64,000 nt of DNA, taken from Desulfatiglandales bacterium (GTDB taxonomy: Bacteria > Desulfobacterota > DSM-4660 > Desulfatiglandales > Desulfatiglandaceae). The stretch covers positions 5,728,001-5,792,000 of the forward strand of contig OY759599.1 in assembly GCA_963662465.1 (NCBI GenBank), given 5' to 3'. Positions within the stretch are counted from its first letter, which is position 1. Every line of letters begins with the position of its first letter. Positions 15,975 through 18,697 of the stretch are shown one piece after another. The translations under genes and the position numbers were made by a program. The notes beneath the pieces are model-generated. The model was not told the origin of the DNA, did no database searches, and saw only the letters and a program-made list of their open reading frames with translations.

Positions 15975-16361
15975 TTACAGGCTTCCTTCACTGCAGGTGG
16001 TGTCGAATCCGCCCCTTGTGTTGTAAATGGTGGTGATTTTTAACCGGCTCGTTTTTAAAATCCGGCTCAAATCATCATATATCCGTTTGGTGACCCCCTC
16101 CTGAAAAAGGCCCACATTTTTAAAACTGACCACATAATATTTTAAGGATTTCAGTTCGATGCATAAGCCCCCTTTCGGATAATATTCAATGATCAATCGC
16201 CCCACATCGGGGAGGCCGCTGAAGGGGCAGCAGGCGATGAATTCCCGGGTTTCGGTTTTGATGTATTGATGAGGACTGTCAAACGCAAAGGTCTCCAGAA
16301 AATCGGTTCTGATGTTGTCGGGACTTTCCCACTGGAAAATCTTTCCTTCCGCCTCGATCAT
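15975..16361 (-). CDS. queF: NADPH-dependent preQ0 reductase QueF (type I)
   Basis: CPFSGLPD catalytic motif, QueF motif [18 protein letters not shown] before ATG 16361. Confidence 0.88.
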
Positions 16362-16414
16362 ATGGCTAAATCTCCTTTTTCGGATGCACGGGCAAGGCAT
16401 CCGGTTTTTTCAAT

Positions 16415-16438
16415 GGACAGACACATGGGTCTGCCCCC
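16415..16438. repeat. GTAG-family-like REP hairpin
   Basis: Minus strand GGGGCAGACCCATGTGTCTGTCC. Confidence 0.5.
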
Positions 16439-16623
16439 TTCGTATAAGGGCACGCCCGCTATCCATACCCTATCCTCATGGAAAAGCCAATGCGAATTAG
16501 CAGAAAAAAAACCTTGAATTGTTTTTAAAAGCATGTCATAAGCAAATTTCAATCTAACGAATTCTAAAGATTCTAAAGGAATTTAGCGGCGTGTCTTCTT
16601 TTCGTAGCCAGCGAACCATCGGT

Positions 16624-16710
16624 ATGTTTCACATGTTAAACGAGGCGGCAGCATTAATCGCGGCAGCCGCGGACGTGCCCGTGGCTCTGGGAGAGGCGTC
16701 GATGGCATAA
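16624..16710 (+). CDS. Putative Ala-rich attenuator leader peptide (28 aa; alternative start 16633)
   Basis: MFHMLNEAAALIAAAADVPVALGEASMA*: 10 Ala codons including runs of 3 and 4, followed by a terminator; SD is weak. Confidence 0.65.
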   Translation: MFHMLNEAAALIAAAADVPVALGEASMA

Positions 16711-16761
16711 ACCATCAACAAAACCAACCAGGGCCGCGGGCGTTTTCGCGGCCGTTTTTTT
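16677..16761 (+). promoter_or_regulatory. Attenuator: alternative antiterminator and intrinsic terminator
   Basis: Terminator GGCCGCG(16732-38)/CGCGGCC(16747-53) + T7; antiterminator 16677-16690 pairs with 16728-16741 (12 WC + 2 GU). Confidence 0.7.
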
Positions 16762-16762
16762 G

Positions 16763-16792
16763 AGGGGCTGCTTGAATTTGCAGCCCCTTTTT
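16763..16792 (+). terminator. Second terminator-like hairpin in the aminotransferase leader
   Basis: AGGGGCTGC-TTGAATTT-GCAGCCCCT followed by TTTT. Confidence 0.5.
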
Positions 16793-16831
16793 CGTGGATA
16801 CAAGGGATTTTTAAAGAGGGAGGGAAAACTT

Positions 16832-18142
16832 ATGCGAACCGAGATTGTTCACATCGGCGCCAGCGAATTGACCTATGAAATCAGAGAGATCATGCAGGTG
16901 GTGGAAAAATTGACGGACATGGGTCTTAAGGTCACCCTGGAGAACATCGGGGACCCCGTGGCCAAGGGTGAAAGAATTCCCAAATGGTTAAAAGGGATTA
17001 TCGCGGATCTGGCCATGGAAGACGACTCCTACGCTTACAGTGCTACCTTGGGCGTATTGGAAACGCGGGAGTATCTGGCGGCCAAAACCAACCGTAAAAA
17101 CGGGGTCCATGTGGACCGGAAAGATATCCTTTTTTTTAATGGTCTCGGGGATGCCATCACCAAGGTGTACGGCTTCCTGCGCCGTACCGCCAGGGTCATT
17201 ACCCCGACACCCACCTACACGACCCATTCGTCCTCGGAAGCCGCCCATGCGGGGCTCCCCCCCGTGTGCTATCCACTCAATCCCCGGAATCAGTGGTATC
17301 CGGACGTGGTGGAATTGCGGCGGCGGGTCAAATACAATCCCGCCGTGTCCGCCATCCTGATCATCAATCCGGACAACCCCACGGGAATGGTCTACCCGGA
17401 GAACATCCTGGCGGAAATCGTTTCCATTGCCCGAGATTTCGATCTGTTTATCATCGCGGACGAAATTTACCAGAATCTCATTTATAACGGCCATCAAAGC
17501 AAATCTCTGTCCGAAGTGATCGGAGATGTGCCGGGCATTTCCATGAAAGGCATTTCAAAGGAGGTTCCCTGGCCGGGAGGTCGTTGCGGATGGATGGAAG
17601 TCTACAATGCGGACAAGGACCCCATGTTTGCCGACTACATCAAAAGCATCGTCAATGCGAAAATGGTGGAGGTCTGTTCCACGACACTCCCGCAAAAGGC
17701 CATCCCCAGGATTTTTGAACATCCCGCCTACGCGGACCATCTCGTGAAACGCCGCGGGCGCTATGAACATTTTTCAGAAATTGCTTATGAAAAACTGAAA
17801 GGCATCCCCGGCATTATGGTCAACCGGACCAATGGCGCTTTCTATATGACCGTGGTTTTCGAAGAAGGGAGGATAAACCAACACCAGACCCTGCCCATTG
17901 CCGATGTCAAAGTTCGGGAACTGATCGAAAATTTAACCACCACCGGTAAAAAGATGCAGCCGGACAAGCGCTTTGTCTATTACCTGCTGGGGGCAACGGG
18001 TATTTGCTTGGTTCCACTGACCTCTTTCAGTTCTGATTTGCAGGGATTTCGGATAACCCTGCTGGAAACCGACGAAGCCAAATTTACCAAAACCTTTGAT
18101 ATCCTTTCGGAGAACATCAAACGATATCTGGCATCGGAATAA
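16832..18142 (+). CDS. alaA: PLP-dependent class I/II aminotransferase, AlaA (alanine transaminase)-like
   Basis: TYEIRE, ENIGDP, INPDNPTG, ADEIY, GISKEVPWPGGRCGW; SD GGAGG before ATG 16832; substrate is inferred. Confidence 0.8.
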   Translation: MRTEIVHIGASELTYEIREIMQVVEKLTDMGLKVTLENIGDPVAKGERIPKWLKGIIADLAMEDDSYAYSATLGVLETREYLAAKTNRKNGVHVDRKDILFFNGLGDAITKVYGFLRRTARVITPTPTYTTHSSSEAAHAGLPPVCYPLNPRNQWYPDVVELRRRVKYNPAVSAILIINPDNPTGMVYPENILAEIVSIARDFDLFIIADEIYQNLIYNGHQSKSLSEVIGDVPGISMKGISKEVPWPGGRCGWMEVYNADKDPMFADYIKSIVNAKMVEVCSTTLPQKAIPRIFEHPAYADHLVKRRGRYEHFSEIAYEKLKGIPGIMVNRTNGAFYMTVVFEEGRINQHQTLPIADVKVRELIENLTTTGKKMQPDKRFVYYLLGATGICLVPLTSFSSDLQGFRITLLETDEAKFTKTFDILSENIKRYLASE

Positions 18143-18157
18143 TGCCCAAGGACACCA

Positions 18158-18697
18158 TCAGGGCACGTAGAGGATGACCAGCAGCTCGGCATCCACTTCG
18201 CCGGGGTTGGAAAGATGATGATCAACGTTGGCATTAAAACGATAGGACTCTTTTTGACTCAGGCGGTGTTTTTCCTTGTCCACGAGAAGCGTGACTTCTC
18301 CTGAAACCACATACACAAACTCCTCGCCCTCATGCTGATAGCCGACCCCTTCGTGTTCTGTTCTGGGGGGAATGGTCACGGAAAAAGCCATCAAGTGCTT
18401 ATCGGCTTCGGCCGGTGTGAGGGTTCTGTATGAATAGGCCTGGGTCCGTTTGGCGGCTTCCTTCAGGCGTCTTTCGGGCGAATCATCCATCAAGAGGAAC
18501 GCCCCGGCATCAAGGTTCATGGTTTTGGCGATCTGGAGCAGAAGGGCAACAGGGGGTTCCACCTGCCCATTCTCAACCCATTCCAGATACTCGTCCGAGC
18601 AACCCACCCGGCCGGCCAGTTCGGATAGGTCAATGCCTCTTTCCTGACGCGCCGTTTTAATCCGCCCTCCCACGGGCATGATATCTTCGTTTGTCAT
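18158..18697 (-). CDS. XRE-family HTH + cupin transcriptional regulator
   Basis: N-terminal HTH (LSELAGRVGCS..YLEWVENG), cupin HEGEEFVYVVSG...DHHLSN. Confidence 0.9.
   Translation of the reverse strand: MTNEDIMPVGGRIKTARQERGIDLSELAGRVGCSDEYLEWVENGQVEPPVALLLQIAKTMNLDAGAFLLMDDSPERRLKEAAKRTQAYSYRTLTPAEADKHLMAFSVTIPPRTEHEGVGYQHEGEEFVYVVSGEVTLLVDKEKHRLSQKESYRFNANVDHHLSNPGEVDAELLVILYVP

Follow-up and report, generated by a model that had tools for sequence, protein, structure and literature searches.

In enterobacterial attenuators such as hisL, a short translated ORF, in which codons for a single amino acid are clustered in a run, is followed by an intrinsic terminator that precedes a biosynthetic gene. 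The his leader folds as a chain of mutually exclusive stems, in which the pairings 1:2, 3:4 and 5:6 stand against 2:3 and 4:5. The closest system described for alanine is the mycobacterial whiB7 upstream ORF (uORF), which is enriched in Ala codons, has been named the 'Ala leader' and senses alanine starvation; slow translation of this uORF favours an antiterminator over a Rho-independent terminator, and WhiB7 induces the alanine aminotransferase AspC (PMC10274678, from the part of the paper available to us). A literature search, with its sources available in part, returned no direct alanine attenuator; apart from these whiB7 studies it listed only a preprint from 2025 that concerns alanine and trans-translation. 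The first-pass annotation knew of no established alanine equivalent of the classical attenuators, which agrees with this for direct control, but needs qualifying for the whiB7 uORF, which is tuned to alanine although it controls a transcription factor and no enzyme gene (PMC10274678, same part).

Here we describe a leader that is probably a ribosome-mediated (leader-peptide) transcription attenuator tuned to alanine and controlling read-through into a PRK06855-type aminotransferase gene. It lies in a stretch of 64,000 nucleotides from a Desulfatiglandales bacterium, the whole of which is referred to below as the window and supplies all coordinates. Searches with Rfam 15 gave no match at gathering score anywhere in the window, and relaxing the threshold to E values up to 10 over 16300-16900 produced six matches, all weak and unrelated; four of the models concerned, which lay over the leader, describe miRNAs or small RNAs.

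Architecture of the leader in the window

The leader is situated in the intergenic region 16400-16832, between the divergent queF gene (minus strand) and the aminotransferase gene (plus strand). The features of this region and its flanks are the following:

15975-16400, minus strand: queF (QueF-II model; 91.2 bits, cut-off 86.9)
16514-16542, plus strand: promoter-like block read by eye, TTGAAT (16514-16519), a 17-nt spacer and CATAAG (16537-16542)
16575-16581, plus strand: Shine-Dalgarno-like AAAGGAA, 10 nt before GTG 16591
16591-16710, plus strand: leader ORF, the longest open frame, 39 codons from GTG with 10 Ala, stop TAA at 16708-16710
16645-16653, 16660-16671, 16684, 16696 and 16705, plus strand: Ala codons, read from the sequence
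16645-16653 (GCG GCA GCA) and 16660-16671 (GCG GCA GCC GCG), plus strand: proposed stall codons
16677-16690, plus strand: segment 2, antiterminator 5' arm inside the ORF (codons Pro-Val-Ala-Leu), from folds
16701-16716, plus strand: small hairpin GATGG/CCATC inside the antiterminator loop, with the leader stop codon in its own loop, from folds
16728-16741, plus strand: segment 3, antiterminator 3' arm, overlapping the 5' arm of T1, from folds
16732-16761, plus strand: terminator T1, stem 16732-16753 (9 pairs), then G and T7 (16755-16761), from the terminator scan
16762-16793, plus strand: terminator T2, stem 16762-16771/16780-16789 with a T run (T5), from the minimum-free-energy fold
16817-16825, plus strand: aminotransferase Shine-Dalgarno sequence GAGGGAGGG
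16832-18142, plus strand: PLP-dependent aminotransferase of 436 aa, the proposed regulated gene (NCBIfam PRK06855; 710.5 bits, cut-off 443)

An ORF of 28 codons with 10 Ala codons, running from ATG 16624 to TAA 16708-16710, had been reported from the first inspection; it is present in the sequence and constitutes the 3' part of the 39-codon ORF. Among the 10 genomes of the genus, GTG 16591 is kept in all 10, as is ATG 16633, and ATG 16624 is kept in two, while AAGGA, AGGGA or GAAGG occupies the position of AAAGGAA in nine members (the tenth has N there). GTG 16591 is more likely than ATG 16624 to be the leader start, and with this start and the conserved motif upstream of it the earlier caveat of a weak leader Shine-Dalgarno sequence falls away. 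The peptide preceding the Ala run is poorly conserved (6, 10 and 11 variable sites at the three codon positions across the 10 genus genomes), and its frame contains no stop and no indel in any of them.

Downstream of the Ala run the RNA can adopt alternative stems. The complementarity between segments 2 and 3 comprises 12 Watson-Crick and two G-U pairs, and the T1 stem begins 21 nt after the leader stop and is followed by a T7 tract, both just as the first-pass annotation had it. The antiterminator constitutes the minimum-free-energy fold of 16590-16800 (-90.6 kcal/mol; z -4.48; 0/200 shuffles as good), where it is lengthened by pairing of 16665-16672 with the 3' arm of T1. A second hairpin had also been noticed further downstream, and this hairpin (16762-16789 plus T5), our T2, is formed in the same fold. 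The terminator scan listed T1 and not T2; its count of terminator-like sites in the region (two) was no higher than in shuffles (mean 1.7), so a single sequence proves little by itself, and the evidence for more than chance comes from conservation and not from the window alone.

The behaviour of these stems in the presence of a ribosome was followed in masked folds, a check proposed at the outset. The antiterminator kept 14 pairs with the A site at 16645-16663, and 12 and 8 pairs with the A site at 16666 and 16669 respectively; once the ribosome lay over 16684-16696, the antiterminator was gone and T1 appeared. A mask placed at the leader stop codon left the antiterminator unbroken in the equilibrium fold; on steric grounds, a ribosome occupying the 37-nt loop of the antiterminator would be expected to keep the helix from closing.

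The promoter-like block at 16514-16542 is almost identical within the genus and has variable flanks in the upstream regions compared; it could be the leader promoter, and a promoter scan of the region did not include it in its list. Between this block and queF lies another stretch of about 40 nt (16459-16500, minus strand) that is near-identical in the genus with variable flanks and, read on the minus strand as TTGGCT, 17 nt and TATGGA, looks like the queF promoter. The queF 5' UTR (16362-16455, minus strand) holds three hairpins, the last of them followed by an A-rich stretch and a Shine-Dalgarno motif, in a layout that we take to be reminiscent of small preQ1 riboswitches; no Rfam model matched this UTR. 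The longest queF ORF, which starts at 16400, probably overshoots the true start: the match to the family model begins only at residue 32, and at about 16361 there is an ATG behind AAAGGAGA.

On the other side of the leader, T2 is separated from the aminotransferase start codon by only 40 nt. Within 16786-16825, the 3' arm of T2 together with its T run (CCCCTTTTT) is complementary, by eye, to AAAGAGGG of the aminotransferase ribosome-binding region, so that an open T2 could mask the Shine-Dalgarno sequence of the gene. An HTH-cupin regulator (18158-18697, minus strand) that is weakly PuuR-like (44 bits, below the cut-off) follows directly 3' of the aminotransferase and is convergent with it. 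Four sequencing runs compared with the window all consist of contigs and carry no ends or levels; the contigs of the metatranscriptome (5% of the sampled words) cover parts of the aminotransferase gene and the queF side and not the leader.

A leader family attached to one aminotransferase gene

A first sample of 101 genomes of the GTDB family included 22 with an orthologue of the aminotransferase (E up to 1e-100). Upstream DNA was available for 21 loci, and a homologous leader was present in 17 of these and absent from four (L023, L025, L026 and L028). A degenerate pattern made up of segment 2, segment 3, the 3' arm of T1 and four T, from which the Ala run and T2 were excluded, recovers 15 of the 17 known leaders and gave 65 matches in species genomes. 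Forty-six of these lie 65-386 nt upstream of an aminotransferase orthologue (61-94% identical), and all 46 carry an Ala-rich leader ORF, with an Ala run of at least three in 45; the remaining gene-linked leader (L058) has 7 Ala in 39 codons and a longest run of two. Two further matches have the Ala run on contigs that end before any gene is visible. The other 17 were rejected as false, coming from unrelated, mostly GC-rich genomes with neither the gene nor a leader ORF; 16 of them have no Ala run, and one (L042) has a run of three in a GC-rich frame. Three of the 48 real matches derive from one assembly, and two pairs are identical. Carriers of the leader are Desulfobacterales/Desulfobacteraceae, Syntrophobacter-type and Desulfatiglandales bacteria, and strain NaphS2 (L092).

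A covariance model found exactly one match in the 8.16-Mb genome to which the window belongs. When 151 genomes of the class were searched, 18 gave a single match each, with 17 directly upstream of the aminotransferase and one at a contig end; a sample of 151 genomes from the phylum gave matches in five. The latter included weak matches to two diverged loci from another family of the phylum (L125 and L127), which have an Ala-rich ORF and a single terminator before the same gene. At these loci (L125, 1380-1610; L127, reverse strand, about 1500-1610) the ORF measures 27-28 codons, the core is similar and the aminotransferase follows about 45-60 nt further on; they could represent an ancestral one-terminator form. 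One other covariance-model match (L126) was discarded as false, since it falls on the Ala/Pro-rich end of a protein-coding gene that has a terminator after it.

The aminotransferase gene occurs in 37 of 201 genomes of the order, and some orthologues have no leader, namely the four mentioned above and L103-L106; in one genus, the orthologues without leader are 49% identical. Three of four loci examined (L103, L105 and L106) have the orthologue adjoining a tRNA-like gene, and the place of the leader is taken there by a conserved block of AT-rich sequence. The queF gene is adjacent in only seven loci, all within the genus; for this reason, and because the T runs and the Shine-Dalgarno motif with its ORF are on the plus strand, a minus-strand element belonging to queF was rejected. 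The element travels with the aminotransferase, and was never found without that gene where the contig permits a check. The Ala run and the reading frame are likewise kept in orthologue leaders across several genera and orders as labelled, which is the outcome of the conservation check that had been suggested for this locus.

Codons and pairings were counted in 50 non-identical leaders, the sequences of which are mutually related. The Ala-rich frame enters segment 2 in the same register in all 50, and a Shine-Dalgarno motif with a start codon was present in 47 (one of the others is N-masked and two have no motif by the rule used). Leader ORFs are 29-39 codons long (one of 50) and contain 8-17 Ala codons (one has 4), mostly with runs of 4-9 consecutive Ala codons and with other residues not conserved; the stop follows segment 2 by 0-21 nt, most often 12 nt. 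Gaps within the Ala-run region measure 3 or 6 nt, and one genus member (L012) has a deletion of 15 nt, all of these being multiples of three. When codons are numbered from the invariant Pro, positions -9 to -3 are 83-100% Ala; the entropy is 0-0.6 bit for the first two bases of these codons and 1.1-1.9 bit for the third. The Ala codons thus vary mainly at the third base, the synonymous variation that the first-pass annotation had proposed to look for, and all four codons are in use (GCT 139, GCG 127, GCC 119 and GCA 86). The pattern is reversed in segment 2 (codons 0 to +3), where third bases hardly vary and codon +1 has either T or C in second position (Val 23, Ala 23), both of which pair with the same G. 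From this periodicity the Ala run behaves as coding sequence, and from its reversal segment 2 behaves as RNA. We infer that the leader ORF is translated and that ribosomes stall on its Ala codons.

Part of the conservation of the Ala run is nevertheless structural, since GCN repeats are self-complementary and allow the run to form a hairpin of its own (about -21 kcal/mol, median) with covarying bases; one pair, between the third base of an Ala codon and the codon before Pro, covaries strongly (CG 17, UA 14, UG 10 and AU 7). This hairpin may be a pause site. A nascent-peptide arrest motif (Pro-Ala/Val-Val-Leu) was also considered as the main constraint and rejected, because the residues change while the RNA pairs are kept and third bases are conserved.

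All three main helices stay paired among the 50 leaders, with some compensatory changes, so that the proposed covariation check also came out in favour of the antiterminator and the terminators. The antiterminator (13 pairs) is paired in 98.6% of alignment cells, with few changes, mostly through G-U, and with T-A to C-G in two leaders. T1 is paired in 96.9%, with U-A to C-G in six leaders, the same column still pairing with G in the antiterminator, and T2 in 97.2%, with compensatory change in four of its eight pairs; slid controls gave 35-70%. Several antiterminator and T1 positions are fixed by the search pattern, and the test is carried by the free positions 63-66, 125, 127 and 128, which show 0-3 unpaired cells of 50. 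Conservation of pairing is strong, and the support from covariation moderate owing to the pattern-fixed positions and the relatedness of the sequences.

T2 has arms like those of T1 in 48 of the 50 leaders, even though T2 was no part of the search pattern; as a consequence of this resemblance, the 3' arm of T1 is complementary to the 5' arm of T2, and the resulting T1-3'/T2-5' helix is 97.7% paired. Median energies are -32.7 kcal/mol for the antiterminator, -18.4 for T1, -14.0 for the T1-3'/T2-5' helix and -14.6 for T2. The best fold from segment 2 to T2 consists, in several leaders, of the antiterminator and the T1-3'/T2-5' helix with T2 open. A hairpin between the antiterminator arms, as in the window, is folded by other leaders too. 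The diverged variants L125 and L127 have no T2.

An earlier segment 1 may compete for segment 2. In folds of the leader ORF alone, segment 2 has at least six bases paired to the part of the ORF that encodes the N-terminus in 40 of 47 leaders, and 20 of 47 of these 1:2 duplexes are significant against shuffles (p<0.05). Counted in fixed columns, the 1:2 helix is 71.3% paired with no covariation beyond shuffles, so the register evidently differs between lineages, and the helix was retained as a per-sequence prediction only. It is predicted neither in the window (0 arm pairs, p 0.34) nor in its closest relative.

Proposed mechanism and rival explanations

The comparison across leaders, in which Ala codons, frame and helices are conserved, and the masked folds together support the alanine attenuator first put forward from the window sequence. 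Transcription would start upstream of the leader and a ribosome would translate the 39-codon ORF. With ample Ala-tRNA, the ribosome would pass over segment 2 to the stop codon inside the antiterminator loop, where its presence would keep segment 2 from reaching segment 3; T1 would then fold and transcription would end, and polymerases escaping T1 would meet T2. With scarce Ala-tRNA, the ribosome would halt on the Ala codons at 16645-16668, leaving segment 2 free to pair with 16728-16741 and thereby blocking T1. The 3' arm of T1, once freed, may take the 5' arm of T2, so that a single stall may disarm both terminators and let the polymerase read into the gene. The termination state would thus correspond to the pairings 1:2, 3:4 and 5:6, and the read-through state to 2:3 and 4:5. 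Segment 1:2 pairing in most relatives would bring about termination without translation there; the window is predicted to have no such pairing.

The relay from T1 to T2 is suggested by the cross-pairing of their arms. In the window, the T2 hairpin (-17.5 kcal/mol) is stronger than the relay helix (-12.5 kcal/mol) and forms in every ribosome state of the equilibrium folds, so a relay there would have to be kinetic; alternatively, T2 in the window would merely lower output, with no kinetic relay.

Like the whiB7 uORF, the leader might also report general translation stress or the supply of more than one amino acid, instead of alanine specifically. The ribosome-free state of the window is the antiterminator, so that the gene would be turned on by whatever prevents translation of the leader, and the ORF also holds non-Ala codons; many starvations likewise elicit a response from whiB7 (PMC10274678, in the part available to us). 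Against this, most leaders concentrate on runs of 4-9 Ala codons (at least three in 45 of the 46 gene-linked ones) and do not keep other residues, a 1:2 helix, which would bring transcription to an end when the leader is not translated, is predicted in most relatives, and the target is a single aminotransferase gene and no stress regulator. We regard such a general sensor as unlikely.

Two other explanations would dispense with stalling altogether. A conserved RNA switch controlled by a ligand or protein, with the ORF as an incidental by-product of GC-rich GCN helices, is quite improbable: it would account for the Ala-run hairpin of about -21 kcal/mol (median) with its covarying pair and for the constraint on segment 2 as RNA, but not for a Shine-Dalgarno motif with start codon in 47/50 leaders, a common frame in 50/50, Ala-run indels in multiples of three and the use of all four Ala codons. 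Moreover, G-C to A-U exchanges, which do occur in the terminator stems, are absent from the first two bases of the core Ala codons, and Rfam contains no match. That the ORF and the two terminators form a separate gene for a small protein or small RNA, the aminotransferase having its own promoter, seems very improbable. Such a gene could explain why two strong terminators follow the ORF, why 140-386 nt separate them from the aminotransferase in some genera and why T2 is present in all equilibrium folds of the window. The distance from T2 to the start codon is, however, only about 40-80 nt in the window and several genera, the peptide is not conserved outside the Ala run and the arm constrained as RNA, an antiterminator overlapping T1 would be useless to such a gene, and the element is always found with the aminotransferase where the contig permits a check. 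Alanine-tuned attenuation of the aminotransferase gene is the reading that we retain.

The aminotransferase and comparison with known systems

The downstream gene had been described as AlaA-type, a label that has to be replaced: its product belongs to the PRK06855 type (710.5 bits against 443) and is not AlaA proper. The alanine aminotransferase model PRK08363 gave 183.9 bits with this protein, below its cut-off of 534. The two best solved relatives are 1xi9 (E 8.9e-39), which we take to be the alanine aminotransferase of Pyrococcus furiosus although its entry is titled 'putative transaminase', and E. coli AlaA 4cvq (E 1.6e-35); the NPxNPTG and SK motifs and the region of the PLP-lysine align with both. 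Among 14 control genomes, a PRK06855 member was found only in Methanocaldococcus jannaschii. The genome containing the window encodes six paralogous aminotransferases, none above the cut-off for alanine transaminase, and one alanine dehydrogenase. This dehydrogenase, the low PRK08363 score and the orthologues that have no leader count against the attenuator reading. A full-text literature search for 'PRK06855' returned no paper. From the logic of the attenuator, the codon content of the leader and the two best solved relatives, the PRK06855-type enzyme is predicted to form alanine from pyruvate.

Taken together, a first direct cis-acting alanine attenuator, a two-terminator relay and a role for PRK06855 as the alanine-forming transaminase of these anaerobes are a combination that we put forward tentatively, as possible rather than probable. 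Leader-peptide attenuation would gain alanine, otherwise found only indirectly via the whiB7 uORF, and PRK06855, a widespread aminotransferase family for which we found no literature, would gain a testable function. The leaders form a well-defined candidate for a new RNA family, with about 50 sequences and one copy per genome, and would bring classical attenuation to Desulfobacterota-type anaerobes, for which regulatory maps are sparse. That the arms of the tandem terminators are interchangeable suggests that one stall could gate two terminators; if the relay is true, one event would switch two consecutive terminators, so that leak would be low and induction full.

The known systems resemble this locus to differing degrees. 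AlaA 4cvq and 1xi9 are the best solved relatives of the protein and yet distant from it, the protein being a PRK06855 member. The whiB7 system is similar in having an Ala-enriched uORF and an antiterminator opposed to a terminator, and its final output is more of the alanine aminotransferase AspC (PMC10274678, as far as the available part describes it). As described there, however, the whiB7 uORF controls a transcription factor that activates aspC, whereas the attenuator proposed here lies directly before the enzyme gene; and the whiB7 uORF, which is longer and of mixed codon content, also responds to antibiotics and to other starvations, whereas the leader described here has consecutive Ala codons. 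The placement also differs from that of whiB7, as the downstream gene is an aminotransferase and the carriers are Desulfobacterales, Syntrophobacter-type and Desulfatiglandales bacteria.

The mechanism would be a textbook one; as far as we found, what appears to be new is that alanine is the signal, that an aminotransferase gene is coupled to the attenuator directly and that two terminators in tandem have cross-pairing arms. The hisL-type attenuators share with this locus the short ORF, the codon run for a single amino acid, the alternating stems and the terminator before a biosynthetic gene. They have no sequence or Rfam relation to the leader, which occurs in Desulfobacterota-type genomes, and they differ from the arrangement proposed here, in which alanine would be sensed, only one gene, for an aminotransferase, is the target, one complete terminator is followed by another, and segment 2 and the stop codon are placed so that the terminating ribosome would sit inside the antiterminator loop.
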